64,000 nt of DNA from contig JAKLIG010000002.1 in NCBI GenBank assembly GCA_022709735.1, positions 130,028 to 194,027 on the forward strand. Reading direction: 5' to 3'. The number at the start of each line of letters is the position of its first letter. The first letter of the stretch is position 1. The notes under the pieces were generated by a model. The model made no database searches, had not been told where the DNA came from, and saw only the letters and a program-made list of their open reading frames with translations. Origin of the DNA: Patescibacteria group bacterium (lineage in GTDB: Bacteria > Patescibacteriota > Minisyncoccia > Moranbacterales > UBA2206). Shown piece after piece: positions 460-45,990 of this stretch. Made by a program: the position numbers and the translations under genes.

Positions 460-1218
460 TTAACTATTATTTTTTTCCTTTTGGAGCACTTTCATTTGCT
501 GAATTATAGCAAAAACCGTAGAAACAAGCCAGTAGAGAGAAAGCCCAGCTGGAAATTTTATCCCAATAAAAAGCGTGAGTAGTGGGCCAAAATACATCAT
601 CTGTTTAGACATCACCTGTGAAATATCTGGGGTAGAATTCTTATCTTGCGCCACTGTTTTCGGAGTTATCATTTTTATCTGAACATATTGCGCCACTGCC
701 GCCAAAACTATCAAAATAAGCTGGGGAACAACTTTAATATCCAACTGATTCAGGTTAATTGTTTTTGAAAGATCAATAATTCCCAGAAAATATTGATTGA
801 TTTGACCTGGGTTAGAAACAAAAGAATAAAGTTCTTTTGGATCAACTAGGAGTCCAGCCTTTGAAATATTAAAAAGCACTTGATAAATCGCAATTAAAAA
901 AATGAGCTGAAAAATTGTCGGCAAGCATCCAGAAAAAGGATTGGTTTTGTTTTGCTTATAAAATTCCATCAGCGCCCGGCTTTGCTTTTCCTTGTCGCCC
1001 TTGTGTTTTTCTTGAATTTCTTTGATTTTTGGCTGCATTTCCTGCATTTTTTTCTGTGATTCAATTTGCTTGCGACTAAGCGGTATTAGAATAAATTTCA
1101 AAACTAAAGTCACAATAATAATCGCCACGCCAAAATCATGGAAGGGGATAATGTTATAAACAAAAATTAAGAAGTTATAAATCGGACGATAGACAGTTTC
1201 TCCAAAAAGTAGTGACAT
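460..1218 (-). CDS. yidC: membrane protein insertase YidC (short form)
   Basis: 252-aa multi-TM ORF with a YidC-like C-terminal region (FPAGLSLYWLVSTVFAIIQQ); positioned between rnpA and jag. Confidence 0.85.
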   Translation of the reverse strand: MSLLFGETVYRPIYNFLIFVYNIIPFHDFGVAIIIVTLVLKFILIPLSRKQIESQKKMQEMQPKIKEIQEKHKGDKEKQSRALMEFYKQNKTNPFSGCLPTIFQLIFLIAIYQVLFNISKAGLLVDPKELYSFVSNPGQINQYFLGIIDLSKTINLNQLDIKVVPQLILIVLAAVAQYVQIKMITPKTVAQDKNSTPDISQVMSKQMMYFGPLLTLFIGIKFPAGLSLYWLVSTVFAIIQQMKVLQKEKNNS

Positions 1219-1950: not shown

Positions 1951-3327
1951 ATGACCAACGAGGAGCTTTGGCAAACAGCCCTGGGGGAAATAGAGCTTTC
2001 AATTTCAAAGGCTAATTTCATCACTTGGTTTAAAAACACCGCCGTTCTTTCTATAAAAGACGGCCATGTGGTTGTTGGCGTGCCCAATGGTTTTGCCAAG
2101 GAATGGCTGGAAAATAAATATGACCTTTATATTTTACGCGCGCTTAAAAATATTCAAGAAGATATTAAATCTGTTTCTTGCCTAATTTCTTCCGGATCTC
2201 CCCAAAATTTCCCTAAAATAAGCCAAGAACCAACTGTAGACGCTATTCAAGCGCCGAAAAAAACAACTTCTTTTTTTGAAAAAAAAGCACCAATAAGCCA
2301 AGAAAGTAATCTTAATCATCGCTATACTTTTGAAAATTTCGTTATTGGAGGGAGTAATGAGCTTGCCCGCGCCGCCTGTTTTGCTGTTTCTCAAAGTCTC
2401 GGTAATGTTTATAACCCACTTTTCATTTATGGCGGGGTTGGGCTTGGAAAAACCCACCTTATTCAGTCTATTGGCAACGAAGCCCTAAGATTAAACCCAA
2501 AAATTAGAGTTAAATATATTTCTTCGGAAAGATTCACTAGCGACCTTATTGATTCCATAAAAAACCAAAAAATCAAGGAATTTAAGGAATATTACCAAAA
2601 AATCGACCTTCTTATTATCGATGATATTCAGTTTATTTCCGGCAAAGAAAAAACCCAAGAAGAGTTTTTCCATATTTTCAACTATCTTTATCAATTAAAC
2701 AAGCAAATTGTCCTTTCTAGCGACCGGGCGCCAAAAGCCATCCAAATTCTAGAGGAAAGACTTCGTTCGCGCTTTGAGGGCGGGATGATTGCTGATGTTT
2801 CTAAACCCGACCTTGAAACAAGACTAGCCATTCTCAAAAGAAAAGTAGCTCAAGATGGGGTAGAAATCACCGAAGACGCCCTAGAATTCATCGCCACAAA
2901 CATTAAAAATAACATTCGTGAACTAGAAGGCGCCCTAAACCGTGTTTCTGTGAGCGCCCAATTAACTAAAAAATCAGTAGATTCTGCTTATACAAAGCAA
3001 ATTTTGTCAGATATCATCTCTAGTGGAAAGAAAAAAGGCATTACTCATAAACACATAATTAAGGTTGTTTCTGATTTTTATGAGATAGATCCGAGTGATT
3101 TAATCGCTAAAAACAGAAAGCAAGAAGTGGTAAAGCCCCGTCAAATAGCGATGTTTCTTATGCGAAGCGAGCTTTCCTACTCTTATCCTGGGATTGGCGA
3201 TAAATTAGGCGGAAGAGATCATACTACTGCTATTCATGCTTACGAAAAAATTTCTGAAGCCCTAAAAATAGACGAAAAACTTACTGAAGAATTAGCCACC
3301 ATAAAAGATCTCCTTTATACAATTTAG
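1951..3327 (+). CDS. dnaA: chromosomal replication initiator DnaA
   Basis: 458 aa; Walker A GGVGLGKTHL; AAA+ boxes; C-terminal DNA-binding domain (HTTAIHAYEKI). Confidence 0.95.
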   Translation: MTNEELWQTALGEIELSISKANFITWFKNTAVLSIKDGHVVVGVPNGFAKEWLENKYDLYILRALKNIQEDIKSVSCLISSGSPQNFPKISQEPTVDAIQAPKKTTSFFEKKAPISQESNLNHRYTFENFVIGGSNELARAACFAVSQSLGNVYNPLFIYGGVGLGKTHLIQSIGNEALRLNPKIRVKYISSERFTSDLIDSIKNQKIKEFKEYYQKIDLLIIDDIQFISGKEKTQEEFFHIFNYLYQLNKQIVLSSDRAPKAIQILEERLRSRFEGGMIADVSKPDLETRLAILKRKVAQDGVEITEDALEFIATNIKNNIRELEGALNRVSVSAQLTKKSVDSAYTKQILSDIISSGKKKGITHKHIIKVVSDFYEIDPSDLIAKNRKQEVVKPRQIAMFLMRSELSYSYPGIGDKLGGRDHTTAIHAYEKISEALKIDEKLTEELATIKDLLYTI

Positions 3328-3605: not shown

Positions 3606-4763
3606 ATGAAACTAATTTGCACTCAAGAAAATTTTAAAAAGGCTATTTATAATTGTGAGAGAGTAGTTTCTAAAAAAAATACTCTACCAATTTTAAATAA
3701 CATTCTTTTTGAAGCCCAAAAGGGTAGTTTAAAGCTATCTGCCACAAACCTAGAAATAGGTGTTTCTTCAAAAATAGGCGCAAAAATAGAAAAAGAGGGG
3801 AAAATAACCATCCCAGTAAGAATTATTAGTAATTTTTCCACTAATTTGCCAGGTGGTGAAAATATAACTCTAGAGCTTTTGGATAATAATTTGAAAATAA
3901 AAAGCGGGGGAAATAGAGCTGTATTAAAGGGAATTTCTGCGGAAGATTTTCCTCTTATTCCTTCTAAAAAAACCGAAAACCTATTAGATTTGTCTAGTTT
4001 TGAGTTAAAAAACGCCATTTTAAAGGTTATGCCAGCAGTAGCCTTTAATGAAGCGAGGCAAGAATTAACTGGAATTAACCTTATTTTAAGGGAAAAAGAG
4101 CTTTGTTTTGCGGCCACTGATAGTTTTCGTTTGGCGGAATTTAGGCTTAAAATAGAGGAAAAAAACACAAATCCGGTTAATTATAGGGCTTTTATTGAAA
4201 AAAATGAAAATATTATCATTCCTTCAAATGTACTTCTAGAACTTAATCGAATTTTAGCGCCGGAAATTGAAACTAGAGTAAAAATTACAATTGAAGAAGG
4301 GCAGATATTTTTTGAGATTGATGGCACAAAACTAGTTTCCCGGCTTATTAATGGGAAATATCCGGAATATAAACATATAATGCCGACAAATTTCAAAACT
4401 AGGATAGTGGGCGAGAAGCAAGTTTTGCAAAACGCAATCAAAATGGCGAGTGTTTTTTCTTCTGGTGGATCAAATGAGATAACGCTAAAAATTGAGGCAG
4501 AAGAAAAGAAAATATCTATTCTATCCTCGAGTGCAGAAGCAGGAGAAAACACCGCAGAGCTCAAGTTTGACATTACTGGGCCGTCTCAAGAAGTGGTGTT
4601 TAATTCTAAATATCTTTTGGATGGAATTAATTCAATTTCTTCCGGTCAGGTGGCAATTTTATTAAATAGCGAGGCTACGCCAGTGGCCGTTCGGGAAATT
4701 AATGAAAAAACCGGCGAAGTTTTGGATGATTTCACTTACATCGTTATGCCGATTAAGAATTAA
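3606..4763 (+). CDS. dnaN: DNA polymerase III beta sliding clamp
   Basis: 385 aa, MKLICTQENFKKAI... three-domain clamp-like length; immediately after dnaA. Confidence 0.9.
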   Translation: MKLICTQENFKKAIYNCERVVSKKNTLPILNNILFEAQKGSLKLSATNLEIGVSSKIGAKIEKEGKITIPVRIISNFSTNLPGGENITLELLDNNLKIKSGGNRAVLKGISAEDFPLIPSKKTENLLDLSSFELKNAILKVMPAVAFNEARQELTGINLILREKELCFAATDSFRLAEFRLKIEEKNTNPVNYRAFIEKNENIIIPSNVLLELNRILAPEIETRVKITIEEGQIFFEIDGTKLVSRLINGKYPEYKHIMPTNFKTRIVGEKQVLQNAIKMASVFSSGGSNEITLKIEAEEKKISILSSSAEAGENTAELKFDITGPSQEVVFNSKYLLDGINSISSGQVAILLNSEATPVAVREINEKTGEVLDDFTYIVMPIKN

Positions 4764-4905: not shown

Positions 4906-5840
4906 TGGTGAATAATAATATTTATGATTTAATAATTATTGGTGCAGGACCAGCGGGACTCTCGGCTTCGATTTATGCTTCGCGCTACGCGATAAAACAT
5001 CTTATTGTCGGCACGGTTTTGGGTGGGCAAATTACCGAGACACATAAAATTGACAACTATCCCGGCATGGAAGATATGAGTGGTTTTGAGTTTGGACAAC
5101 TTTGGGGGAAGCATGCAAAAAAATATGGCGTGGAAATTATTCCATCTTTAGTTCAAGAAATTGAAAAAGAAAATAATATTTTCAGTTTAACTTTAGCGGA
5201 CAAAAACATCTTAAAAGCGCGGACTATTCTTTTAGCCACTGGCACGAAAAAAAGAGAATTAAATATTCTTGGAGAAAAAGAATTTCTTGGCAAAGGTGTT
5301 TCTTATTGCGCCACTTGTGATGGATTTTTTTATAAAAATAAAAATGTCGGCGTAATTGGTGGATCAGATAGCGCCGTTACTTCCGCGTTATACTTGGCTG
5401 ATTTAGCCCAGAAAGTTTTTTTAATTTATCGAAAAAGTGAACTTCGCGCCGAACCGTTTTGGGTGGAGCTGGTTAAGAAAAATAATAAAATTGAAGTAAT
5501 CTATGATACAAATGTTATAGAGATAATGGGCAAAGAAAAATTAGAAAAAGTAAAATTAGATAAAAGTTATAATAATTCAGATGAGTTAAATTTAAACGGA
5601 CTTTTTATTGAAGCCGGATCAGAACCAAGTGTAGATTATATTGAAAATTTAGGCGTTGAAACAGATGAAGGCGGATACATAAAAATCCAAAAAAACGGCG
5701 CGACGAATATTCCGGGAATTTTTTCGGCTGGCGATATTACCGACGGTTCTGACAAATTTAGGCAAGTCATTACCGCTGCTTCCGAAGGGGCAATTTCTGC
5801 CAGAGGAATTTATAATTGGCTTCGAAAAGAAGGGAAATGA
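4887..5840 (+). CDS. trxB: thioredoxin-disulfide reductase
   Basis: FAD motif IIGAGPAGLSASIYA; redox-active CATCDG; NADPH site GGSDSAVTSALYL. The true start is probably the second ATG at 4905 (MVNNNIYDLIII...), because the first 18 nt belong to the upstream repeat. Confidence 0.85.
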   Translation: MEFEFNMVNNNIYDLIIIGAGPAGLSASIYASRYAIKHLIVGTVLGGQITETHKIDNYPGMEDMSGFEFGQLWGKHAKKYGVEIIPSLVQEIEKENNIFSLTLADKNILKARTILLATGTKKRELNILGEKEFLGKGVSYCATCDGFFYKNKNVGVIGGSDSAVTSALYLADLAQKVFLIYRKSELRAEPFWVELVKKNNKIEVIYDTNVIEIMGKEKLEKVKLDKSYNNSDELNLNGLFIEAGSEPSVDYIENLGVETDEGGYIKIQKNGATNIPGIFSAGDITDGSDKFRQVITAASEGAISARGIYNWLRKEGK

Positions 5841-6118
5841 AATCTCTAAAAAATCTTTTATATAAAAGAGAAAAAAAGAAATCCATTGCGCTTACGGACA
5901 AGGATATTTTTTATATTTTTTCTAAAATCATCAAAGAAGAATTTGGAAATGTTGGAGCAGAAAAACTCAAGGCAGATTATTTCAAAAATAAAACTATTTT
6001 TGTGAGGTCTTCGAGCTCCGCTTGGGCGAGCGAACTTTTTTCCAACCGGAATACTATTATTCGGAAAATAAATAAAGAATTAGGAGAGGGGGAAATAAGA
6101 GAAATAAAAATGAAATAA
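5816..6118 (+). CDS. DUF721/DciA-like small protein
   Basis: About 95 aa with ...FVRSSSSAWASELFSNRNTIIRKIN..., typical of DUF721 proteins found near dnaA/dnaN. The likely start is ATG 5837 overlapping the trxB stop (ATGA). Confidence 0.45.
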   Translation: MASKRREMKSLKNLLYKREKKKSIALTDKDIFYIFSKIIKEEFGNVGAEKLKADYFKNKTIFVRSSSSAWASELFSNRNTIIRKINKELGEGEIREIKMK

Positions 6119-6729: not shown

Positions 6730-7476
6730 ATGCTAACAGAAGTTTTGCAAAATTTAGGGCTATCGCCCAATGAAGCTAAAATCTATGAAGCTTTGTTGGA
6801 TTTAAAAGAATCTGGCGTGGGAGAAATTTCTACTCACGCCAAAGTGCACCGGAGAAATGTCTATGATGCTATAAAGCGCCTCATCGACAAAGGCTTGGTT
6901 TTTCCAATTCTCACCAAAGGCGAAAATATTTATGCGCCGGTTGACCCCGGGAAGTTATCGGAAATAATAAAAGAAAAAGAAATTGAACTGAACAAAATAC
7001 TTCCGGAACTTCAAGTGAAATATCAAAAAAAATCAGCGAGCCAGGAGGCCTATATTTATCGGGGCGTGGAAGGATTCAAAAATTTTATGCGGGATATGAT
7101 TAGAGTCGGCGAAGATATTTATGCCATTGGCGCAAAACTGGCGTGGCTTGATCCGGAGATCCAAAATTTTTCCGAGCAGATTATGAAAGAAATAAAACGG
7201 AAAAAAATCAACATGCATATTTTGTTTGATGAAAAAGTGAAAGAGGCTGGCGAAGAAAGTTATAAAAAATTCGGTAATAACTATCGATTTATTCCAAATA
7301 AGTATCTAACCAATTCCACGATTAATATTTTTGGCGACTATGTCGTCAATTACACCGGGCTCTATGTCAAAAAAATAGACGAGAAGGGCACGATGTTTGT
7401 TATTCGCGACCAAAAAATCGCCGACAGCTATCGGAAGTGGTTTGAATTTTTATGGGATAATTGTTCGAAGAAATAA
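6730..7476 (+). CDS. TrmB-family HTH transcriptional regulator (paralog 1 of 3)
   Basis: N-terminal winged HTH ...LGLSPNEAKIYEALLDLKESGVGEIS...; same architecture and length as the ORFs at 31552 and 49345. Confidence 0.7.
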   Translation: MLTEVLQNLGLSPNEAKIYEALLDLKESGVGEISTHAKVHRRNVYDAIKRLIDKGLVFPILTKGENIYAPVDPGKLSEIIKEKEIELNKILPELQVKYQKKSASQEAYIYRGVEGFKNFMRDMIRVGEDIYAIGAKLAWLDPEIQNFSEQIMKEIKRKKINMHILFDEKVKEAGEESYKKFGNNYRFIPNKYLTNSTINIFGDYVVNYTGLYVKKIDEKGTMFVIRDQKIADSYRKWFEFLWDNCSKK

Positions 7477-7813: not shown

Positions 7814-7883
7814 AAAAAATTATTCTAACAAAAAAAGAGAACGCCAATGACGCTCCCTTTAATCATTTTTATGGTATAAGCTT

Positions 7884-10445: not shown

Positions 10446-10514
10446 AAATTTATTTTTTAAGGCATCTTATATTTTAGTACAAAAGAGAAAGTTTTTCAAG
10501 GCAAAAGACGCGAG

Positions 10515-11786
10515 TTATTTTATAAAGGAGGCTTTAAAATATTTTTTAATATAATGAATTGTTTTTTTATGATTATCCCCGCAAATAATAACGACAATAT
10601 CTCCAGGTTTAGCAAGTTGAGAAGCTCTTTTAATAGCATTTTCTTCAATTATTATGTTTTCAACTAAGCCTCTTTTTTTATTTTTTAAAATTCCTTTGGT
10701 GAAAATACTTGAAACTTCCCCAATTTCTCTTGTAATGCTACAATTTTTTCCTACAAAACGACCCCGATTTATGCCATCAATTTTATCATAGATGATTAAG
10801 TCATCATAGGAATTTGAAATAAACCGTCCTGTTTCGGTAATGACGCTGTCTGTTCTGTCTGGAGCTAGTCTCACAACGCCCAAGAGGCGATTAACTTTTG
10901 GATTTCGTTTTAATTTTTTCCCTAATTTTGCAATTTCGCGAAGGGAATATTTTTCATGAGCATAATCAACCAAAATTTTTACATTTTTTTTATTTTTTAA
11001 CATTGTTAATCTTCCGCCCGTTTCCTCTAGTTTATAATTTCTAATTAAGGTCAGGTCTTTTTTAGTAATTTTTTTGCCATTAAAAGCATATAGGCCACCA
11101 ATTATAAACATTAAATTAAAAATAGATGGGAGAAAAATCCCGCCAAATGTCCAATCAATTTTTTTTACATCAAGAATTTTTTCTATTTTATTTTTTGATT
11201 TGATAATAATAAAATTATCCAGAAGAGTTATGATTTCCCCGTTTTTTGATAAGTGGTTTTTTATGTTAAAGTACTTAAAATTTATTCCAACTGGAAGTAA
11301 AGTGGCTTTTCTTTTTTCGGGAACTTTTTTTAATTGCGAACAAACATATTTGTCGTCAGCATTAAAAATTATAAAGCCATGATCATTGATTCTTTTAAAA
11401 ATAAAACTTTTTGAATTAGCCAAATCGGATTTTTTTTGCAGGTGGCCCATTCCTAAATGGTCTTCGAAAACATTAGTGAATATTCCAATATCATGAAAAC
11501 CATATCCTAAGCCATGAACACCGTTTGAGCCTACGGAAGATTCTAAAATTGCTGTAAAATTAGGAAAATATTTTTTCATAGTAATTAGATATTTCCCTGG
11601 GCATACAGTCGGAGCTTTAACAAATAAATTTCTGCTATCTTGCAATGTGCTTTTTTGCTTTTCATTTATATAATGCCCGTCCGTATCTACTCTAAGGGTG
11701 GTTCCTCCTGAATTTTTTATTATATAACTCAACGCCCTTGTTATAGTTGTTTTCCCTTTTGTTCCTGTTGTTGATATTATTTTCAT
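10515..11786 (-). CDS. Mur-ligase-family protein resembling the C-terminal (M) domain of cyanophycin synthetase CphA
   Basis: STTGTKGKTTITR matches the Mur-ligase P-loop (GTNGKTT); ...GLGYGFHDIGIFTNVFEDHLG matches the CphA M-domain signature. Confidence 0.7.
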   Translation of the reverse strand: MKIISTTGTKGKTTITRALSYIIKNSGGTTLRVDTDGHYINEKQKSTLQDSRNLFVKAPTVCPGKYLITMKKYFPNFTAILESSVGSNGVHGLGYGFHDIGIFTNVFEDHLGMGHLQKKSDLANSKSFIFKRINDHGFIIFNADDKYVCSQLKKVPEKRKATLLPVGINFKYFNIKNHLSKNGEIITLLDNFIIIKSKNKIEKILDVKKIDWTFGGIFLPSIFNLMFIIGGLYAFNGKKITKKDLTLIRNYKLEETGGRLTMLKNKKNVKILVDYAHEKYSLREIAKLGKKLKRNPKVNRLLGVVRLAPDRTDSVITETGRFISNSYDDLIIYDKIDGINRGRFVGKNCSITREIGEVSSIFTKGILKNKKRGLVENIIIEENAIKRASQLAKPGDIVVIICGDNHKKTIHYIKKYFKASFIK

Positions 11787-11796
11787 GATTATTAAG

Positions 11797-12807
11797 TTAA
11801 CTGAATAAATAATTTATTAAATTTTTATGGAGATCTCTTGATTTCCCTCGTGTCGGACTGCTATGAAATTGTATATCGGGAAAAGAGCCGTTAATTTCAA
11901 CTACAATCCCATCATTTTCTGTTAAAGGTTTTGTTATATCTTTGGATATAATATCTATTCCTATTATAGGAAGTTTTAAGTTTTCTGATATTTCCTTTGA
12001 CATATTAATAAAATATGGATGAACACTTTCCGTTACATCGATATATTCTCCTCCATCAAATCCGCTAAAACATAAAGGAATTTTTTTATTTTTTGGAATA
12101 ATTGAATTTAAATTGTAACCTTCTGATGCTAAAAAACGTTCAGTTTTTTCTGAAATTTTTATTTTTTTCAAACGAGCCTTCTTTCTTCTTTCTTTGTTGT
12201 ATTTATTTTCCCAGTTTATAAGTTCTCGAACTGTTCTTTTCCCATCTCCTGAAACATAAGCAGGTAAATTTTTTGTTGCAGCATAGGATCCATCAGCTAT
12301 ATAGGTTATCCTGTAATAATCTCCAGAAATATGTTTTTCCACTATTACTTTATTGTCAGTTTTTTTTGCTATCCTAAAGGAATTAATTAAGAGTTTCTTT
12401 GTAGTTACATTAATTGTAATTCCTTTTCCTTCAGCTGCTCCTATGGGTTTTACCACCACAGGAAATCCAAGCGATTTTATTGCAGAATCCAGCTCTTCTA
12501 ATTTGGAAATGGTTTTGCTTGGAGCAACCGGATATCCTAATTTAGAAAGAAAGTCTTTTGCTGTATGCTTATTTCGAGCAATAGCCATCCCTACCGGATT
12601 TGTTTTAGAGGTCATTGTTTTGTTTAACCAGATAATTTTATTTCCTCGCTTAAATATATATAAATTTTTTTTGCTGAAAATTCTATATACAGCTATATTA
12701 TTTTTTAATGCACATAAAATAAGCTTTTTTGAAATCCCTGCGGGAGATTTTTTTTTATTTTTGAAAGTATCAAGAGTAATTTTTTCAGAACATTTCAATA
12801 TTTTCAT
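11797..12807 (-). CDS. ATP-grasp ligase resembling the central ATP-grasp (G) domain of cyanophycin synthetase CphA
   Basis: PVVVKPIGAAEGKGITIN, VIVEKHISGDYYRI, PAYVSGDGKRTVRELI, IIGIDIISKDITKPLTENDGIVVEINGSFP and C-terminal HSSPTRGKSRDLHKNLINYLF parallel the CphA G-domain including the ...PRDV...LF tail. Confidence 0.7.
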   Translation of the reverse strand: MKILKCSEKITLDTFKNKKKSPAGISKKLILCALKNNIAVYRIFSKKNLYIFKRGNKIIWLNKTMTSKTNPVGMAIARNKHTAKDFLSKLGYPVAPSKTISKLEELDSAIKSLGFPVVVKPIGAAEGKGITINVTTKKLLINSFRIAKKTDNKVIVEKHISGDYYRITYIADGSYAATKNLPAYVSGDGKRTVRELINWENKYNKERRKKARLKKIKISEKTERFLASEGYNLNSIIPKNKKIPLCFSGFDGGEYIDVTESVHPYFINMSKEISENLKLPIIGIDIISKDITKPLTENDGIVVEINGSFPDIQFHSSPTRGKSRDLHKNLINYLFS

Positions 12808-15538: not shown

Positions 15539-16153
15539 CTAATTGGGTATGATAGAAAAATATCCGACGGGTGTTTTAATAATTTTACCGCCCCAAGACT
15601 CAACTTCTTTTTTTGAATAGCGCTTTATAGCGGTGAAATCTTCCATTATAAAACTATCATTTTTGATACAATTAATTTTTAAATTAATTGATTTAAAATA
15701 TTCTTGAGCCAAGCCATTATCAAATTCTTCTCCGTATACAGAAATAATGATGACTTTGCCAAGCTCCTTCATTTTCGCAATGGATTTGTCCTGTTCTGGA
15801 ATGTATCCCAATGTGTTGTTGAGACAAATCACATAATCAAAATGAGGCAAGGCCGGAGGATTAGTAATATCGCCATGAATAAAATTTACACAGAGACCTG
15901 CTATGGCGATTTTTTGTTTTGCGAGTTCTACTAAAGAAGCTTCAATTTCAAGGCCAGTAATTTTCAAATCAGGACGAACTTCAAGTAAACGAATAGCTCT
16001 TGCTCCATCCATACTGCCAACTTGCAAAACACGAGCATTTTTTGGGAGCATAAGACGTAGCAGGTCAATTTCTTTGAGCCAATTATCTCTATTTGGTTTT
16101 GGTATATTTTCTAAAACGTCACAGTTTACATACACATCTTTTAATGAGGGCAT
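15539..16153 (-). CDS. class I SAM-dependent methyltransferase (cargo of the insertion)
   Basis: Motif I VLQVGSMDGARAI; acidic post-I LEIE; 204 aa. Confidence 0.7.
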   Translation of the reverse strand: MPSLKDVYVNCDVLENIPKPNRDNWLKEIDLLRLMLPKNARVLQVGSMDGARAIRLLEVRPDLKITGLEIEASLVELAKQKIAIAGLCVNFIHGDITNPPALPHFDYVICLNNTLGYIPEQDKSIAKMKELGKVIIISVYGEEFDNGLAQEYFKSINLKINCIKNDSFIMEDFTAIKRYSKKEVESWGGKIIKTPVGYFSIIPN

Positions 16154-22410: not shown

Positions 22411-25400
22411 CTAAAGATCTGTTACTCTTTCCACTTCTTCCAGAGAAGTTTCGCCTTCCAAAACTCGCAAAATTCCATCTTGCGTCATGGTGAGCATGCC
22501 AAGTTCAACTGCTTTTTCTTCGAGCTCGGCTGTGATGGCACCTCTAGTGATAAGATCTTGAATTTCACGAGAAATTTGGAAAACTTCGCTTACAGTCATC
22601 TGACCCTTGTAGCCAAGTCCATTGCATTTCGGACAGCCTTTCGGTTTATATATTTCCAAAACTTTCGGAATTTCCACGCCTGATTTTTGACTAATAGTTT
22701 TCAAAACTTTTTCAATTTTTTCTTTTTCTTCTGCGCTTGGAGAAATTTTTTCTTTGCAATCGCAAAGTCTTCGCACTAATCTTTGCGCCATAAAAGCATT
22801 GACGGCGGTGGCAATGTCTGATGGAGCCACGCCCATATTGATCATTCGAGCGACAGCGCCAGCAGCGTTGTTAGTGTGGATTGTTGACAAAACCAAATGG
22901 CCAGTAAGAGAGGCTTGCACGGCCACTTGCGCAGTTTCGTCATCTCGAATTTCACCGATCATCATAATGTCTGGGTTTTGGCGAAGAAGGGCACGAAGAG
23001 CGGTGGCAAAAGTATAGCCTTCCTTTTCACTTACAGGAGTCTGTAAAATCCCAGGTAGTTGATATTCAATTGGATCTTCCACGGTGATTATTTTTACTTC
23101 GGGCTTGTTGAGAAGACTAAGGATACTATAAAGCGTGGTGGTTTTTCCAGATCCAGTCGGACCAGTATTAAGAATGACTCCATTAGGTTTTTTAATCTCA
23201 CTTATTATTTTTTCCAAATTTTCTTTTCTAATCCCAAGTTTTGTAAGATCTAGTTCTATCGAAGATCCACGAAGAAGGCGCATCACAATTGTTTCACCAT
23301 AACCGCCGAGAATTATTGAAATACGCACATCAATATTTTTTTCGGTTATTTCCTTAATATCATCATCAAACATTATGCTAAAGCGACTGTCAATCACGCC
23401 TTGACGAACTTCTGTTTTTACGCCAGAAAGCATTTTTATTTCTCCTAAAAGTGCTGGATATTCATTGAGTGGAAGTGTGGCAACATTTTGCAAAATTCCA
23501 TCGATTCGAAATCGTATTTTCACATCATCTTTTTCCGGTTCGATATGAATGTCGCCAACATTAAGAATTGTGGCAGCAGAAAAAATAATTTTATTAATAT
23601 CCATTGTCTTTGAAGCGCGCAAAACTTCTTCTAATTTTTTGAAATCTACTATATTTTCTTTAGCGCTTGAATAATTTTTTTCTTCGATTAGAATTTTTTT
23701 GCCAAGTGTTTGCGACATCAATTTTTCATAAATGCTTTCCAAAAATTCTCCTTGTCCGGTAGCTTCCTCGACTTCATCGATAGAGGTGACACCGCTAATT
23801 GCTTTCAAAATCCCGTCTTGAAGCATGGTGATCATACCAGATTCCAAGGCGGCAATGGCCAGATCAGTTTCGCCAGCCATTTCCAAAATTAATTTTTCAA
23901 TATCTTCATTGATTGTGAGAACTTCAAAAATTCCAATTCGCCCCTTGTATCCCAATCCACTGCATTTTGGACAGCCTTTTGGCCGATAAAGTTTTTCGAT
24001 ATTTTTTGGAATTTCTATTTTGGATTTCGGGGAGATAATTGAAAGAATTTTTTGAATGGATTCAATTGATTCCTTAGCGGGAACATAACTTTCTTTGCAG
24101 TCACAAAGTTTTCGCACCAAACGCTGACCGATTATGGCATTAATTGCAGGGGACATCAAAGTTGGCTTCACTCCAAGCTCAACGAGCCGTGGAATAGTTC
24201 CGATAGCATTATTAGTGTGGAGTGAAGATAAAACTAAATGTCCAGTGAGAGAGGAATTTACCGCAATGTCAGCGGTTTCATCGTCTCGAATTTCACCAAC
24301 TAAAATTACATCTGGGTCTTGGCGGACGATAGCGCGAAGCCCTTGGGCGAAAGTATAACCCCTTTCTTTTTCTACTTGGGTTTGAGAAATGCCTGATAAC
24401 TCATATTCAATTGGATCTTCAATAGTGATTATTTTTTTATCCGGTGTATTTAATTTGTTGATGATGGAATAAAGTGTTGTAGTTTTCCCCGATCCAGTTG
24501 GTCCGGTGTTCAAAATCATTCCGTTTGGTGCTTGCATTTCTTTTTGGACTATTTCATAAGCCAAGCCCTGAAGTCCTAAATTTTCTACGCTCACCTTGAT
24601 TGAATCTGGATCGAGAAGTCTCATTACAACTGATTCGCCGAAATTTCCTGGAATAACGGAAACACGAAGGTCAATTTTTTTGTCAGCTAAATTTATTTCG
24701 AAAGTTCCATCCTGAGCAATGTCGCGAAGATTGAGTTTCATTCCAGACATTAACTTTATGCGGGAAAGAATAGTGTTAAAAACATTGAGTGGCAAAAAGG
24801 CTATGTCCTGAAGCGTTCCGTCAATGCGATACCTAAGACGAAGTTTGTTTTCTTGTGGCTCAATATGAACATCGCTCGCGCCAAGCTTGTAGGCGCCAGC
24901 CATCATAATATTCAAAATTTGAGTGGTTGGCAGTTCGCCGATGCGCTGTTTCAGAGTAATAAGATCTTTCATTTCTTTCTCAAATTCGGAAAGTTCTTCT
25001 CCGCTAAGATTCAAGCTCATTTGATCCAAAACATCCACAAAAACAATCTGTTTGTATTTTTCAAAAACTCGGTTCAAGTTTGACGCAGAGACAACAAAAA
25101 TTTTTATCTGCCAGCCTTTTTCTTGCTTGAGTTTTTCCAAGAAATCTGTAGCTTCTTTATTTTCCGGATCAGAGGATATGATTGTAATCACTCTTCCATT
25201 TCGATGGATCACTGCTATCCGAAATTTCCGCGCTTCTTCTTCAGAGAGAAGTCGAATATCATCTTTAGAAATTGGGATGAGATTAGTATCGATATAAGGG
25301 AGATTAAGCTCGGCAGCCAGTTTTGAAGCTGTTTCTTCTTCCTCTTTTTTTCGGAATTGAGAAAGAATTTTAGCAGTCTTTGTTGTTTCCTGGATCTCAT

Positions 25401-25443
25401 CTTGGTTTTTATTTTGAATTTTAGGTTTGAGAATTTTTATCAT
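22411..25443 (-). CDS. tandem fusion of two complete GspE/PilB-type secretion ATPases (type IV pilus / T2SS assembly ATPase)
   Basis: Two full copies: Walker A GPTGSGKTTTLYS twice; tetra-Cys zinc motifs CDCK...CPKC twice; two GspE_N-like N-domains. Nucleotide-level internal similarity is also visible as paralogous antisense ORFs at 22754-23017 and 24134-24358. Confidence 0.85.
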   Translation of the reverse strand: MIKILKPKIQNKNQDEIQETTKTAKILSQFRKKEEEETASKLAAELNLPYIDTNLIPISKDDIRLLSEEEARKFRIAVIHRNGRVITIISSDPENKEATDFLEKLKQEKGWQIKIFVVSASNLNRVFEKYKQIVFVDVLDQMSLNLSGEELSEFEKEMKDLITLKQRIGELPTTQILNIMMAGAYKLGASDVHIEPQENKLRLRYRIDGTLQDIAFLPLNVFNTILSRIKLMSGMKLNLRDIAQDGTFEINLADKKIDLRVSVIPGNFGESVVMRLLDPDSIKVSVENLGLQGLAYEIVQKEMQAPNGMILNTGPTGSGKTTTLYSIINKLNTPDKKIITIEDPIEYELSGISQTQVEKERGYTFAQGLRAIVRQDPDVILVGEIRDDETADIAVNSSLTGHLVLSSLHTNNAIGTIPRLVELGVKPTLMSPAINAIIGQRLVRKLCDCKESYVPAKESIESIQKILSIISPKSKIEIPKNIEKLYRPKGCPKCSGLGYKGRIGIFEVLTINEDIEKLILEMAGETDLAIAALESGMITMLQDGILKAISGVTSIDEVEEATGQGEFLESIYEKLMSQTLGKKILIEEKNYSSAKENIVDFKKLEEVLRASKTMDINKIIFSAATILNVGDIHIEPEKDDVKIRFRIDGILQNVATLPLNEYPALLGEIKMLSGVKTEVRQGVIDSRFSIMFDDDIKEITEKNIDVRISIILGGYGETIVMRLLRGSSIELDLTKLGIRKENLEKIISEIKKPNGVILNTGPTGSGKTTTLYSILSLLNKPEVKIITVEDPIEYQLPGILQTPVSEKEGYTFATALRALLRQNPDIMMIGEIRDDETAQVAVQASLTGHLVLSTIHTNNAAGAVARMINMGVAPSDIATAVNAFMAQRLVRRLCDCKEKISPSAEEKEKIEKVLKTISQKSGVEIPKVLEIYKPKGCPKCNGLGYKGQMTVSEVFQISREIQDLITRGAITAELEEKAVELGMLTMTQDGILRVLEGETSLEEVERVTDL

Positions 25444-31551: not shown

Positions 31552-32286
31552 ATGAATACATATTTAAATGACAATGAAAAAAAGGTTTTGGCGAGTTTGT
31601 ATAATTTGGAAGACGGAGCAGTAAATAAGATTGCCAAAGAAACTCTCATAAATAGAACGACCCTCTATCCTATTTTGGAAAAGCTGGCTGAAAAGGGCTT
31701 GGTTTCCAAGATTAAAGCAGAAGGAAAAATTCGATTTCAGCCGATTTCCAAGGAAGAATTTAGTTTGTGGGCGGAAAGGAAAGAGAAAGAATTGAAAGAA
31801 AATAATAAAGAACTTTTATGCTGGATTGATCGACAAGGCGAAAACAAAAAAACCTCCCTAGCTTCAGAGATAAAATATTTTGAAGGAATGGAAGGAATAA
31901 AAAGTTTATATGCTGATACTTGGCGAGAGAACAGGGAAAAGATAATTTATGCTATTACTGATTACAAAAGCGCTTATGAAAATATGGGTAATTTTTTCCG
32001 GAAAGATTATTTTCCAGCCAGAATTGGGCACGGGGTCTGGATAAAAAACCTAATTCCGGAAAGTCCGGAGGGGAGAAAAGATTTAAAAACTGCCAAAGAA
32101 ATGCTTCGCGAAATGAAATTTATCAAACTCTTTCGCGATTTGGATATTGAAGTTAATATTTATAACGATAAAATAGCAATCGTAGCTTTTGACAAGAAAA
32201 ATCCATCGGGTGTTATTATTAAAAATGAAAAAATCGCCGAAGCGATGAAAAATATTTTTGAATATTTGTGGAAAACAGCGAAATAA
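31552..32286 (+). CDS. TrmB-family HTH transcriptional regulator (paralog 2)
   Basis: ...LEDGAVNKIAKETLINRTTLYPILEKLAEKGLVSK... wHTH; same length as the other paralogs. Confidence 0.7.
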   Translation: MNTYLNDNEKKVLASLYNLEDGAVNKIAKETLINRTTLYPILEKLAEKGLVSKIKAEGKIRFQPISKEEFSLWAERKEKELKENNKELLCWIDRQGENKKTSLASEIKYFEGMEGIKSLYADTWRENREKIIYAITDYKSAYENMGNFFRKDYFPARIGHGVWIKNLIPESPEGRKDLKTAKEMLREMKFIKLFRDLDIEVNIYNDKIAIVAFDKKNPSGVIIKNEKIAEAMKNIFEYLWKTAK

Positions 32287-38107: not shown

Positions 38108-39079
38108 ATGGATAGCAATTTTCTTCAATCAAAAGAATGGCGGGGATTTCAGGAGGTGGTGGGGCGAAAGACGTCTTGTATTGATAGTGAAAATTTTTCT
38201 GCCAGTATAATTGAACATAATCTTCCAATTGTTGGAAAGTATTTTTATATTCCGAAAGGACCAATTATAGAAAATCAAAATGCAAATCTCAAAAATAAAA
38301 ATGACAATGCAAAATTAAAAAATAATTTAAATGAATTAATAGATTTGGCGGAAAAAGAAAAAGCGGGATGGATTAGGATTGAGCCGGAGAATGAGGAAAT
38401 TTTGGAAATGATTAAAAAAAATATAAAAAATAAAATAACTAAGGCTCCGCATGAAATGCAACCGAGAGAAAGTCTAATTCTTGATATTACAAAAACCGAA
38501 GAAGAATTATTGGCAGAGATGAAAAGTAAAACTCGATATAACATTAAAGTTGCTGAAAAACATGGAGTAAAGATTAAGAAACAAGAAAAAAGCGAGGAAT
38601 ATATCGAAGAATTTTTGAGGCTAACAAAAATAATGGCCAAAAGACAAGGAATCGAAACGCACAGTGGAGAATATTATCAAAAAATGTTTGAGATAATTCC
38701 GGGCGATGTTATTAAATTATATGTGGCGGAATATAAAAATAGAGTAATCGCCGCGAATATTATGATATTCTTTGGCGACACTGCGACTTATCTTCACGGC
38801 GCATCGGATGACCAGTATAGAAATGTTATGGCGCCGTATCTTCTTCAGTGGCAAGCGATAAAAGATGCGAAAGCTGAAGGATTTAAAAAATATGATTTCT
38901 TTGGAGTGAAAGTTAAAAACAAGTCTGGAAAATCCTGGGAAGGAATAACCAGATTTAAGACTGGATTTTCTCCAAGCACAGATCCTATTGAATTTCCGGG
39001 CTGTTATGATATAGTGATTAATCCAATAAAATATTGGGTATATAGAATAATTCAGAAAACAAAGAGTTTTGTAAGATAA
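38108..39079 (+). CDS. FemAB-family (FemX-like) peptidoglycan peptide-branch aminoacyltransferase
   Basis: MDSNFLQSKEWRGFQ... GNAT-like FemAB N-terminus; contains a low-complexity insert NQNANLKNKNDNAKLKNN. Confidence 0.65.
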   Translation: MDSNFLQSKEWRGFQEVVGRKTSCIDSENFSASIIEHNLPIVGKYFYIPKGPIIENQNANLKNKNDNAKLKNNLNELIDLAEKEKAGWIRIEPENEEILEMIKKNIKNKITKAPHEMQPRESLILDITKTEEELLAEMKSKTRYNIKVAEKHGVKIKKQEKSEEYIEEFLRLTKIMAKRQGIETHSGEYYQKMFEIIPGDVIKLYVAEYKNRVIAANIMIFFGDTATYLHGASDDQYRNVMAPYLLQWQAIKDAKAEGFKKYDFFGVKVKNKSGKSWEGITRFKTGFSPSTDPIEFPGCYDIVINPIKYWVYRIIQKTKSFVR

Positions 39080-39084
39080 TTTTT

Positions 39085-40395
39085 ATGAAAAAGTTGGTCC
39101 CACAATCCATCAAAAATATCTATCATCTTTTCCAAGCCGTCTTGGCTAATTTGATTTATGGCTTTCCTTCAAAAAATATAAAAGTTATTGGAGTAACAGG
39201 AACAAATGGCAAGACTACGACTGTGCAGATGATCACAAAGATTCTGGAAGAATCGGAGAAGAAAGTTGCCATGGCGTCAACGATCAATTTTAAGCTAGGT
39301 GAAAAAGAATGGGTAAATGCAACAAAATTTACCACTCTCTCCAGTTTCAAAGTACAGAAATTTATTAAAGAGGCGGTTAAAACTGGTTGCGAATATTTAG
39401 TTTTAGAAACTTCTTCCCATTCATTAGATCAATTCAGAACTTGGGGAATAAAATATGACACGGCTGTTATTACAAATATAACTCGCGAGCATTTGGACTA
39501 TCACAAAACGATGGAAGAATATCGCCGAGCTAAATTGAAATTATTTAAAAATGCGAGAGTAGTAGTGGTTAATTTGGATATGGAAAAGCCGCAAAATTTT
39601 ATTAAATTTGGTGAAGAGAATATTTTCGGATACACTATGGAAAATCAAAAATCAAAAATCAAAAATCAAAATGACAATATAAAATTTAAAATTATTCAAG
39701 CCAAAGATATTGAATTAGGAATTGATTATGCTAAATACAAAATATCCGCCCAAGGCGGACCAGCCTTTGGCTGGCAAGATACAAACTTCAGGCTTAATTT
39801 GCTTGGCAAATTTAATATTGAAAACGCTTTGGCAGGGACCTGTGTTGGCTTGGCCTATGGAATTTCTTTAGAAACAATAAAAAACGCGCTTGAAAAAATT
39901 AAAGGCGTGCCGGGAAGAATGGAGCGAGTGCCAAACGATGAAGGAATTGAAATTATTATTGATTATGCGGTGACGCCAGATAGCTTGGAAAAGGTGTATA
40001 GTCTTATTTCTCAAAGTAAAAAAGAAAATGCAAAAATTATTTCAGTCTTTGGTTCTTGCGGAGAGCGTGATCGTGGGAAGCGGCCAATTATGGGCGAAAT
40101 TGTTTCGCGCTATGCGGATTATATAATTCTCACTAACGAAGATCCGTACGGAGAAGATCCAGAACAAATAATTGGGGAAGTTGAATCAGGAATTAAGAAG
40201 CATGAATTAGGAAAAAATTACTGGATAATTATGGATAGAAGAGAAGCAATTAAAAAGGCCTTGCAAATTGCAAAGCCTGGAGATATTTTTGTGATTACTG
40301 GAAAAGGAGCGGAAGAGGTTATGGCAATCGGCGAAAAAAGAATTCCGTGGAATGAAAAAAAAGTTATCCAAGAAGTCTTGCAAGAATTAGTGTAA
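39085..40395 (+). CDS. murE: Mur ligase (MurE-like UDP-MurNAc-tripeptide synthetase)
   Basis: VIGVTGTNGKTTTVQMI P-loop; DNAANP-like and C-terminal Mur-ligase domains; in-frame AAAATCA x4 heptamer at 39640-39675. Confidence 0.75.
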   Translation: MKKLVPQSIKNIYHLFQAVLANLIYGFPSKNIKVIGVTGTNGKTTTVQMITKILEESEKKVAMASTINFKLGEKEWVNATKFTTLSSFKVQKFIKEAVKTGCEYLVLETSSHSLDQFRTWGIKYDTAVITNITREHLDYHKTMEEYRRAKLKLFKNARVVVVNLDMEKPQNFIKFGEENIFGYTMENQKSKIKNQNDNIKFKIIQAKDIELGIDYAKYKISAQGGPAFGWQDTNFRLNLLGKFNIENALAGTCVGLAYGISLETIKNALEKIKGVPGRMERVPNDEGIEIIIDYAVTPDSLEKVYSLISQSKKENAKIISVFGSCGERDRGKRPIMGEIVSRYADYIILTNEDPYGEDPEQIIGEVESGIKKHELGKNYWIIMDRREAIKKALQIAKPGDIFVITGKGAEEVMAIGEKRIPWNEKKVIQEVLQELV

Positions 40396-43318: not shown

Positions 43319-43321
43319 GAT

Positions 43322-45082: not shown

Positions 45083-45990
45083 TGTATAATTTATTTATGA
45101 GCACGCTTTATACTCAAGCTGACAAGAATACCCGCCTAACCTGGATTTATATCACCGGATTTTTGATTTTTGTCATTGGCGTGGGTTATGTTTTTGCCGG
45201 AGCGATGAATAATAGCGTGATTTTATACATTGCAGTAATCTTCTCTGTTGTGATGAGTTTTGCATCATACTGGTGGAGCGATAAAATTGTTCTGGCGATG
45301 TCGAGCGCAAAAGAATTGAAGCATGAAGACAACCCGCAAATTTATCATCTTGTTGAAAATCTTTGCATCACGGCGGGACTTCCAATTCCAAAAATTTATA
45401 TAATTCAAGACACCGCGATGAATGCTTTCGCGACGGGAAGAGATCCGGCGCACGGCGTAATTTGTCTCACAACCGGTATAATTTCCCGCCTAGAAAAAAC
45501 GGAACTCGAAGGCGTGATTGCGCACGAGCTTTCGCACATCGGGAATCGCGATATTTTGCTTTCTACGGTGGTTGTAATTTTAGTTGGATTTGTCACACTT
45601 CTAGCGGATTGGTTTCGTCACTGGGCTTTTTTTGGAAAAAAAGGGTCGGACAGCGAAGGCGGAGGACAGCTTAGAATGATTCTTATAATTTTAGCAATAG
45701 TTCTTTCAATCCTGGCGCCGATTGCGGCGACGCTAATGCAACTCGCGATTTCTCGAAAAAGAGAATTTCTAGCCGATGCTGATGGAGCGCTACTCACTCG
45801 CTATCCCGAAGGACTGGCTAATGCACTTTCAAAAATTTCTACTGATACTGAACCGCTGGAAGCCGCCAATCGCGCCACGGCCCATCTTTTTATTGCCAAT
45901 CCTTTCAAAGGCAAAAAAGTAATGAAATTTTTTATGACCCACCCACCAATCGAAGAGAGAATAAAGGCGCTAAAAGGGATGAATGTTTAA
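45082..45990 (+). CDS. htpX: M48 zinc metalloprotease HtpX
   Basis: HELSHIGNRD (HExxH); four TM helices. Confidence 0.85.
   Translation: MYNLFMSTLYTQADKNTRLTWIYITGFLIFVIGVGYVFAGAMNNSVILYIAVIFSVVMSFASYWWSDKIVLAMSSAKELKHEDNPQIYHLVENLCITAGLPIPKIYIIQDTAMNAFATGRDPAHGVICLTTGIISRLEKTELEGVIAHELSHIGNRDILLSTVVVILVGFVTLLADWFRHWAFFGKKGSDSEGGGQLRMILIILAIVLSILAPIAATLMQLAISRKREFLADADGALLTRYPEGLANALSKISTDTEPLEAANRATAHLFIANPFKGKKVMKFFMTHPPIEERIKALKGMNV

Follow-up and report, generated by a model that had tools for sequence, protein, structure and literature searches.

The stretch of DNA analyzed here (hereafter the window) comprises 64,000 nucleotides of contig JAKLIG010000002.1 (positions 130,028 to 194,027 of the forward strand) from a Patescibacteria group bacterium. 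It carries two adjacent genes whose products are homologous to the two catalytic domains of the cyanophycin synthetase CphA, the ATP-grasp domain G and the Mur-ligase domain M, and we refer to these proteins as G-like and M-like. In public databases, they are entered as HRY82543.1 ("ATP-grasp domain-containing protein") for G-like and HRY82542.1 ("Mur ligase family protein") for M-like, on a 200.7-kb contig of a Candidatus Moranbacteria metagenome-assembled genome. The initial annotation of this DNA regarded the pair as a CphA enzyme split into two genes, and the coordinates of the open reading frames (ORFs), the motifs, and the gaps of 10 and 69 nt that it quoted are all correct, on the minus strand. 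It is nonetheless well supported that the two genes are neither a cyanophycin synthetase cut in two nor a cell-wall Ddl or MurE, and equally well supported that they occupy the variable accessory-ligase slot of a cassette conserved in Parcubacteria-type bacteria of the candidate phyla radiation (CPR). The gene row and its signals, in reading direction, are as follows.

15427-15400, minus strand: promoter-like site before ruvC (consensus match only)
15393-14890, minus strand: ruvC, the left-hand border of the cassette, 17 nt upstream of the 7TM gene
14872-14222, minus strand: seven-transmembrane (7TM) membrane protein, 216 aa (PF14402 7TM_transglut, 108 bits, profile positions 58-247)
14217-12823, minus strand: ATP-grasp/retropepsin fusion, 464 aa (PF14397, 233 bits; PF05618, 34 bits)
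12807-11797, minus strand: G-like ATP-grasp ligase, 336 aa, homologous to the CphA G domain
11786-10515, minus strand: M-like Mur-type ligase, 423 aa, homologous to the CphA M domain (Mcore and Mlid)
10471-10499, minus strand: promoter-like hexamers TTGAAA and TAAAAT with a 17-nt spacer, between the M-like gene and the next (10 of 12 consensus positions; consensus match only)
10445-7884, minus strand: class-A penicillin-binding protein (PBP) PBP1A, 853 aa (TIGR02074, 523 bits, cutoff 509; PF00912, PF00905), the right-hand border of the slot
7834-7860, minus strand: terminator-like hairpin, a 12-bp stem followed by a T run, directly after the PBP1A stop codon

According to the ORF list, the spacers from ruvC through the 7TM, fusion, G-like, and M-like genes to the PBP1A gene measure 17, 4, 15, 10, and 69 nt, and ruvC may share a transcript with the 7TM gene, from which only 17 nt separate it. 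Between the 7TM gene and the M-like gene, we found no terminator-like site comparable with the one that follows PBP1A. Expression of the PBP gene, whose product combines a transglycosylase, a transpeptidase, and a Big_7 domain, may start from an internal promoter formed by the hexamers in the 69-nt spacer.

CphA1 (7LG5, 7WAE) is the best sequence, profile, and fold match of both ORFs, and the order of the genes, G then M, is that of its domains. Among the NCBIfam families, the cyanophycin synthetase family TIGR02068 ranked first for G-like (E 5e-74, 249.7 bits, residues 19-335 against profile positions 153-471), ahead of GshAB (147 bits) and of the N-acetylglutaminylglutamine synthetase Ngg (124 bits); Ddl reached 45.7 bits against a cutoff of 243, and the RimK family TIGR00768 reached 33 bits against a cutoff of 143.4. 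The same family was found with M-like (E 7e-56, 189.8 bits, residues 3-415 against profile positions 481-860), for which the best MurE model gave 80 bits against a cutoff of 373 (MurE cutoffs range from 257 to 373). Searches of PDB sequences retrieved CphA1 7lg5 with G-like (E 4e-41) and with M-like (E 3e-25), and profiles built from the two families scored 202 bits on CphA1 7lg5 against 44 bits on Ddl for G-like, and 148 bits on CphA1 7wac against 52 bits on MurE for M-like. The AlphaFold models, computed from the family alignments, are of high predicted confidence (predicted local distance difference test scores of 91.4 for G-like and 91.5 for M-like). When these models were compared with the PDB by Foldseek, CphA1 and CphA2 came out on top for G-like (E of about 1e-28, query TM-score 0.77 to 0.80), with Ddl at E 1e-11 and a query TM-score below 0.5. 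For M-like, the CphA1 M domain (7lgj) ranked first (query TM-score 0.82, root mean square deviation 2.9 Å, E 4e-26), and MurE followed at E 4e-20.

M-like shares with the Mur ligases at large (MurC-F, MurT, FolC) the Mur_ligase_M and Mur_ligase_C domains, the P-loop, and the Mg and NxxxDH motifs. In contrast to MurC-F, its P-loop begins at residue 7, and the UDP-MurNAc-binding N-terminal domain is absent. Nor is M-like the MurE of the cell, because a canonical MurE is encoded elsewhere in the window, at 39085-40395 (436 aa; TIGR01085, 424 bits against a cutoff of 257). The match of this MurE starts at profile position 68, so that its N-terminal domain looks shortened, and a FemX/FemAB-family transferase of 323 aa is encoded directly upstream of it, the two genes together spanning 38108-40395; this pairing suggests that stem peptides are branched in this organism. 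The profile scores, the Foldseek ranking, and the separate MurE led us to reject a Ddl/MurE identity for the G-like and M-like proteins, which we consider next to impossible. The resemblance behind such an identity, as ordinary cell-wall ligases that are merely CphA-like, amounts to weak matches to Ddl (45 bits) and MurE (80 bits), far under the cutoffs of 243 and 373; the CphA model outscores these matches three- to fivefold.

Several features set the pair apart from a cyanophycin synthetase. In CphA1, the two domains belong to one polypeptide with an N domain of about 160 aa, but here they are two polypeptides, and neither PF18921 nor any other N-domain model matched any protein of the cassette; the match of G-like to TIGR02068 starts only at profile position 153. 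Without an N domain, neither the tethering of a polymer nor the generation of a primer is expected here. The equivalog cutoff of TIGR02068 is 850 bits, and the two scores add up to 440. Moreover, a peptidase S51/cyanophycinase gene was looked for both in the window, among ORFs of 150 aa or more, and in the related loci with annotation, and none was found. A genomic association of cphA1 with cyanophycinase has been reported for 81% of the genomes that have both cphA1 and a recognizable cyanophycinase (PMC10206079). The genes studied here lie not beside a cyanophycinase gene but within a cassette of 7TM, RloC-like, and retropepsin modules.

To compare the active sites, we took residue roles from the substrate complex of TeCphA1 (PMC9427784) and mapped them onto G-like through pairwise and profile alignments, which agreed with each other. 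The catalytic scaffold of CphA1 is kept (K220 as K80, K261 as K120, E300 as E157, R309 as R166, E450 as E304, and N452 as N306), R309 being the residue that contacts the C-terminal carboxylate and the acyl-phosphate (PMC9427784). As read from these alignments, the machinery for phosphoryl transfer, namely, the ATP-binding, Mg-binding, and acyl-phosphate-stabilizing residues, is intact. The substrate pocket is different. In CphA1, the substrate aspartate is contacted by R323 (beta-carboxylate), R458 (alpha-carboxylate), and N394, and the primer arginine by E215 (PMC9427784). In G-like, R323 is replaced by N180, which is invariant across the family, R458 by Q313, and E215 by A75; N394 is deleted, in a large loop that is two residues shorter. 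Further replacements are H267 by E126 in the P-loop of the G domain, S396 by F250, and G456 by D311, and the A-T-A-N-L-S-T-G-G segment gives way to an invariant F247-x-G-x-D251-G-G-E254-Y255 loop in the G family. Mutants of H267 and of R309 were inactive in both CphA1 enzymes, E215A inactivated TeCphA1, and S396W abolished the activity of SuCphA1 (PMC9427784); of these four residues, only R309 is retained in G-like. Because neither of the arginines that bind carboxylates is left in the nucleophile pocket, which has acquired acidic and aromatic residues, aspartate appears very unlikely as the substrate of G-like, and the composition of the pocket hints at a cationic or neutral amine as the incoming residue.

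The M family, for its part, is invariant in T7-G-T-K-G-K12, E82, N105, D109-H110, G258-R259, and D274-x-A-H277. K12/T13 of the P-loop, T35, E82, N105/D109/H110, R259, and H277 are invariant or nearly so, the ATP/Mg site is intact, and for this reason the M-like enzyme looks active. Both families are more basic than the CphA1 domains: the net charge per 100 aa is +5.3 in the G family and +4.1 in the M family, against 0.2 and -1.6 in the two CphA1 domains and a window background of +1.2. This modest effect, confounded by AT-richness, may be taken as a weak hint of an anionic substrate.

These comparisons bear out two claims of the initial annotation, that both ORFs are of the CphA type and not ordinary Ddl or MurC-F ligases, and that storage cyanophycin is an unlikely product, given the replaced aspartate contacts, the missing N domain, and the negative search for a cyanophycinase in the window. 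They do not bear out CphA chemistry in detail, since R323, N394, S396, R458, H267, and E215 are all changed; an alignment of catalytic and substrate-binding residues, which it had proposed, gives a divided answer, with the ATP, Mg, and acyl-phosphate residues kept and every aspartate contact replaced. The resemblance to CphA1 is thus one of machinery, conserved in both active sites, and of logic, an ATP-grasp enzyme extending a C-terminal carboxylate and a Mur-type ligase amidating another carboxylate. The G domain of CphA2 (7TA5, 8FXH) is an equally good fold match (E 1.5e-28, query TM-score 0.78), and CphA2 shows that a single active site is enough for a G domain to function. CphA2 differs, however, in that an N domain and a truncated, inactive M domain are part of the same chain, which polymerizes beta-Asp-Arg, whereas here M is separate and apparently active.

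The two genes upstream of the G-like gene constitute the stable part of the locus. The 216-aa 7TM protein matches the RloB model NF052267 with 79 bits (cutoff 900) over profile positions 313-507 of 508 only; it corresponds to the C-terminal 7TM half of RloB without the N-terminal inactive transglutaminase domain, and it is encoded in every cassette locus that we examined. The 464-aa protein joins an RloC-like ATP-grasp ligase (residues ∼9-293; PF14397 ATPgrasp_ST, 233 bits, cutoff 31; TIGR02291, alpha-L-glutamate-ligase-like, 284 bits, cutoff 314) to a RimB/RloA-like retropepsin (residues ∼324-463, with a D-T-G-A motif; PF05618, 34 bits; NF052264 RloA3, 37 bits), and it has no signal peptide. 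The initial annotation had called it a second RimK-like ligase; it is indeed an ATP-grasp enzyme but belongs to the PF14397 branch (39 bits on TIGR00768, cutoff 143.4) and is fused to a retropepsin. Such ligase/retropepsin fusions are the rule in CPR bacteria: the search returned no fewer than 5582 clusters at E ≤ 1e-20, of which the best 120 have 70 to 84% identity, which makes the fusion far commoner and better conserved than either G or M. The 464-aa protein is the conserved core enzyme of the cassette. None of the four cassette proteins matched a PADLOC anti-phage model, and a defense-system identity was rejected on this ground.

The cassette surrounding G and M is a reduced, fused form of an amidoligase system of the Rlo/RimK-RimB type. 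Systems of this type were reportedly predicted computationally by Iyer et al. in 2009. With Pseudomonas RloABC, it shares the 7TM_transglut membrane protein, the ATP-grasp ligase of PF14397 (just short of the cutoff in TIGR02291), and the retropepsin. It departs from RloABC in that the CPR membrane protein lacks the periplasmic inactive transglutaminase domain, in that RloA is a separate protein secreted with a signal peptide whereas the CPR retropepsin is the C-terminal domain of a cytoplasmic ligase, and in that the CPR form adds one to four ligases and a class-A PBP. Pseudomonas aeruginosa cells that lack the three secreted RloA proteases die under hypo-osmotic conditions, are sensitive to beta-lactams, and have an abnormal shape, and deletion of rloB or rloC suppresses all of these defects (mBio 2025; PMC12239564); a Shewanella RloB homologue affects the production of membrane vesicles (PMC12096838). 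With RimK/RimB, the likeness lies in the pairing of an ATP-grasp alpha-L-glutamate ligase with a product-trimming retropepsin and in the RimK-family members found in the slots of relatives. Also, M-like genes of Saccharimonadia stand directly beside a RimB-RimK pair (L006, L011). The S6-glutamylating RimK system differs in that the core ligase of the cassette is not a RimK proper and has a membrane partner.

By annotated look-ups and by phmmer and tblastn searches, we mapped 18 distinct cassette loci, the window included. The scan of genome contigs yielded about 11 useful loci (the matches listed were mostly MurE-like genes), and the scan of metagenomes yielded 10. Stand-alone G-like proteins (331 to 347 aa) fall into at least 43 clusters at 44 to 79% identity, and every named one comes from a CPR bacterium. 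Stand-alone M-like proteins (∼415 to 435 aa) make up more than 227 clusters from Moranbacteria, Magasanikbacteria, Andersenbacteria, Saccharimonadia, and Parcubacteria. The M protein of the window itself is missing from these search results because the 90% cluster that holds it is represented by a fragment of 30 aa. The loci have an invariant frame, (yebC)-ruvC-7TM-ligase/retropepsin-[slot]-class-A PBP: the adjacency of ruvC and the 7TM gene is kept in all of them, and of the 16 cassettes whose downstream side is visible, 15 have the PBP gene immediately after the slot. The slot always holds one to four ATP-dependent carboxylate-amine ligases, at times with another enzyme, and its content varies even between close relatives. 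In the list below, G2 denotes a second CphA-G-type ATP-grasp protein, with 177 bits on TIGR02068 and only 26% identity to G.

G and M: window and L082
G2 and M: L087
G2, RimK-like ligase, and M: L092
M and RimK: L017 and L008
RimK (590 aa) and G: L001
G and two RimK-type ligases: L003, L088, and L083
two RimK-type ligases and G: L080
G, RimK, a 487-aa ATP-grasp protein, and RimK: contig P0042
G, RimK-like ligase, and a GNAT protein: L079 (10982-11467)
G, RimK-like ligase, and a MATCAP-like (PF08014) metallocarboxypeptidase: L081 (2168-3487)
G2 alone: L089
G2 and two RimK-like ligases: L090
one RimK-like ligase: L091
two RimK-type ligases and a divergent Mur ligase: L018

The locus closest to the window by its core genes (L087; RuvC 81%, 7TM protein 88%, ligase fusion 75% identity) also holds the closest relative of M (76%) but has G2 where the window has G. 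The closest relative of G (79%, L088) is followed by two RimK-type ligases and no M. An M-like gene follows a G-like gene in only 2 of the 11 loci with visible downstream genes, the window and L082, so that the pair, which the initial annotation proposed to look for beside PBP genes in relatives, does recur but is not the conserved unit; what that annotation missed is the widespread Rlo-like cassette with its hypervariable ligase slot. Some of the slot ligases pass the RimK-family cutoff of 143.4 (158.5 bits in L088 and 153.4 bits in L017), and several give matches to tubulin tyrosine ligase (TTL) models. The GNAT and MATCAP-like enzymes hint at N-acetylation or C-terminal trimming of the product. 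The base composition tells a similar story: GC content is 29.4% in the G-like gene and 29.8% in the M-like gene (19 to 22% at third codon positions, 19% for G), against 37 to 39% (32 to 38% at third positions) in the flanking core genes, 35 to 41% in every gene neighboring the two, and 35.7% in the window. Because the GC content of the two genes is so much lower than that of the core genes, this suggests that the arrival or exchange of G and M postdates the cassette core.

M-like genes are also found in other settings. In one locus (L005), the gene adjoins a RimK-type ligase gene, and in another (L007), it stands with a RimK-like ligase and a deacetylase among glycosyltransferases. The Saccharimonadia loci L006 (8001-10658) and L011 (9983-12637) have a contiguous M-RimB-RimK trio, and in L014 and L015, a RimB-RimK pair lies a few kilobases from the M-like gene; none of these four loci has a 7TM protein or PBP gene nearby. 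Tandem M-like pairs with overlapping stop and start codons occur at L009 (9935-12474) and L010 (8015-10548), on contigs that are binned as "Gammaproteobacteria" and are probably misbinned CPR.

The gene break between G and M coincides with the G/M domain boundary of CphA1, which raises the question of whether the two genes derive from a fused ancestor. A HMMER search of 1.84 billion representative sequences returned 8041 matches. Per domain, other stand-alone proteins of about 330 aa scored highest (248 to 303 bits), followed by the G domains of CphA1-type fused proteins (200 to 232 bits) and by the domains of giant tandem multi-ATP-grasp proteins (80 to 180 bits). The giant proteins were rejected as the closest relatives because their whole-protein rank summed tandem domains; CphA1-type G domains score higher per domain. 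These giants (750 to 2400 aa; P0296-P0311, P0328, and others) contain CphA-G-type ATP-grasp domains in tandem, two or three per protein and in many cases joined to acylphosphatase, AMP-binding (adenylation), or LPG_synthase_C domains, and look like a fused multiligase assembly line; we know of no characterized member. In a neighbor-joining tree of 219 domains (midpoint-rooted and without support values, hence crude and only indicative), the CPR G clade groups with three other stand-alone sequences as the sister of the fused CphA1 clade and is not nested within the latter, and G2 lies in a separate stand-alone clade further out. The tree thus gives, as an indication only, no support for a recent fission of a CphA gene, the origin implied when the pair was called a split CphA. 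A frameshift or assembly artifact was rejected as well, since stand-alone G-like and M-like proteins of constant length are numerous and L082 has the same arrangement.

In the literature, we found no paper that links CPR bacteria with cyanophycin-synthetase-like genes or that describes this slot, and the public annotation of relatives is either generic or the automatic "cyanophycin synthetase" of the Joint Genome Institute (JGI). The arrangement is real, reproducible, and previously unremarked.

Our current working hypothesis, to which we give a probability of about 0.5, is that the G-like and M-like proteins are accessory modules of a mix-and-match cassette that builds or tails peptides independently of the ribosome and acts on the cell envelope. 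The cassette would build or extend a short peptide or peptide tail, probably acidic, with neither ribosome nor nonribosomal peptide synthetase (NRPS). By analogy with RimK and RloC, the RloC-like ligase would start or extend an alpha-linked acidic chain, which the fused retropepsin would trim, as RimB and RloA do. G would then phosphorylate the C-terminal alpha-carboxylate of the acceptor and add one residue other than aspartate, after which M, like the CphA M domain and MurE, would link another amine with a carboxylate, so that the product would be branched or capped. Coupling of the product to the membrane, or its export, may be the task of the 7TM protein, and the effect would fall on the envelope made by the adjacent PBP. 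Since lineages swap their accessory ligases (G, G2, M, RimK types) along with the GNAT protein and the MATCAP-like peptidase, the product is probably lineage specific. The link with the envelope is suggested by the conserved adjacency of the PBP gene, by the phenotypes in Pseudomonas and Shewanella, which concern the envelope, and by the modest basicity of the G and M families. A more specific version, which we put forward only tentatively and consider improbable, is that the kit assembles a lineage-specific, branched peptide that is cyanophycin-like but chemically different and is displayed on the envelope or built into it; one possible form would be an acidic alpha-linked backbone with decorated side-chain carboxylates. 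In that version, fusion of such stand-alone modules may have given rise to CphA1 itself.

Several points weigh against this hypothesis. The residue mapping rests on sequence alignments that run through loop regions and not on a superposition of ligands. The sampling of loci is small and biased, as most were retrieved through G or M and three were picked through the core gene. One M-containing cassette (L008) has no PBP gene, and the M-like genes of L005-L007 and L009-L011 are not part of a cassette at all. Because a ruvC...PBP1A-DciA...dnaN-dnaA neighborhood is syntenic in many Parcubacteria, the adjacency of the PBP may be inherited, origin-proximal synteny and not a functional link. The analogy with Pseudomonas is imperfect, since the protease there is a secreted protein and the one here is part of a cytoplasmic ligase, and all steps of the mechanism that go further than homology, residues, and synteny are ones that we infer.

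The role in the envelope proposed by the initial annotation is plausible in view of the PBP adjacency and the Pseudomonas and Shewanella phenotypes, but one of the two products that it had in mind, a peptidoglycan stem or cross-bridge variant, is, in our analysis, only a rival. The slot ligases would then add residues to free carboxylates or amines in the stem of a UDP-MurNAc-peptide or of lipid II, and the class-A PBP would polymerize and cross-link the modified precursor; the ATP-grasp D-aspartate ligase Aslfm and the Mur-type MurT are precedents for such tailoring. PBP1A follows the slot in 15 of 16 cassettes, rlo mutants of Pseudomonas have beta-lactam and cell-shape phenotypes, the FemX-like transferase beside MurE in the window indicates that stem-peptide decoration occurs in the organism, and the acidic nucleophile pocket of G is compatible with the side-chain amine of lysine or diaminopimelate. 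We nevertheless regard this explanation as unlikely: M-like lacks the UDP-binding N-terminal domain of MurC-F and occurs without a nearby PBP in Magasanikbacteria, Saccharimonadia, and Andersenbacteria, a promoter-like site precedes the PBP gene, and the retropepsin, the RimK-family alpha-glutamate ligases, and the MATCAP-like carboxypeptidase look like the means of building and trimming a tail and not of stem synthesis. These same enzymes would fit a reversible C-terminal tailing of a specific protein, comparable with RimK acting on S6 or with tubulin tyrosine ligase and MATCAP, in which the retropepsin or the MATCAP-like peptidase removes a short, lineage-specific tail. RimB indeed trims the glutamate tails that RimK adds (PMC12239564). 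A RimB-type retropepsin is fused to the core ligase, slot ligases of the RimK family pass the family cutoff, several slot ligases match TTL models, and a MATCAP-type carboxypeptidase is encoded in the slot of L081. Against this, no candidate target with a conserved acidic C-terminus among the cassette proteins was apparent on a nonsystematic reading of the window translations, and the invariably linked 7TM protein is left unexplained unless it is itself the target. We know of no precedent for a Mur-type ligase acting on a protein, and we judge tailing to be slightly less likely again than precursor tailoring.

The runners-up among the G families point to another kind of product, a small cytoplasmic osmolyte or metabolite peptide such as an N-acetylglutaminylglutamine-like or glutathione-like di- or tripeptide. 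The ATP-grasp enzymes of GshAB (GshF) and Ngg resemble G in that they extend a short peptide at its alpha-carboxylate by an amino acid, the L079 slot holds a GNAT gene, and Rlo systems are tied to osmotic stress (PMC12239564). Yet their scores (147 and 124 bits) are about half of that of CphA and well under their cutoffs (425 and 569), they occur as fusions with GshA or GNAT modules and produce defined di- or tripeptides, a soluble dipeptide needs neither a membrane protein nor a protease, and up to four ligases per slot suggest longer products, so that we find this explanation very unlikely. More doubtful still is a genuine two-subunit cyanophycin synthetase whose product, either cyanophycin or a close Asp/Arg(Lys) analogue, would serve to store nitrogen. 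CphA1 is the best database match of both ORFs, the gene boundary is the G/M domain boundary, and JGI automatically names several relatives "cyanophycin synthetase," but the N domain is absent, H267, R323, N394, S396, G456, R458, and E215 are changed or deleted, the scores of 250 and 190 bits compare with an equivalog cutoff of 850, the partner gene is not conserved, and none of the window ORFs of 150 aa or more was found to encode a peptidase S51/cyanophycinase.

Two features place the locus near the replication origin: the genes yidC (460-1218, minus strand), dnaA (1951-3327), and dnaN (3606-4763), which are ∼6 to 9 kb from G and M, and the sign change of the GC skew near position 4 kb of the window. 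DciA is encoded at 5816-6118. Around the cassette, a class-I S-adenosylmethionine-dependent methyltransferase gene (204 aa; 15539-16153) sits between ruvC and yebC, which are adjacent in most related loci. Three TrmB-family regulators are encoded within the 64 kb (6730-7476, 31552-32286, and 49345-50088), one of them just past the PBP1A gene; in L001 and L091, too, the cassette is flanked by a TrmB gene. A 1010-aa protein with two tandem T2SSE (type II/IV secretion ATPase) domains is encoded at 22411-25443, and its gene adjoins ruvB in L001, L088, and L089. The region at 41507-45990 opens with a 603-aa ORF that has no Pfam or NCBIfam match, continues with a 586-aa fusion of a Memo/AmmeMemoRadiSam-B-like domain with PGA_cap (CapA, poly-gamma-glutamate capsule), and ends with an M48 peptidase; it is another possible poly-amino-acid or envelope locus.

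If our reading is correct, the chemistry of both CphA active sites also exists in free-standing, exchangeable enzymes with different substrate pockets, which would broaden the uses of the CphA G and M folds and suggest a path by which CphA1 might have been put together. The Rlo/RimK-type cassettes, which are poorly understood, would gain a richer form, in which the identity of the accessory ligases could reveal the product. Should the branched-peptide version hold, the kit would be a third route to nonribosomal peptides, beside NRPS and single-enzyme polymerases, and one diversified by gene swaps in a single slot. G and M, which are small, soluble, and of confidently predicted structure, would be good candidates for direct biochemistry. 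For CPR bacteria, whose cell surfaces mediate episymbiosis and are almost unstudied biochemically, the cassette would represent a conserved, envelope-linked, and fast-evolving locus.

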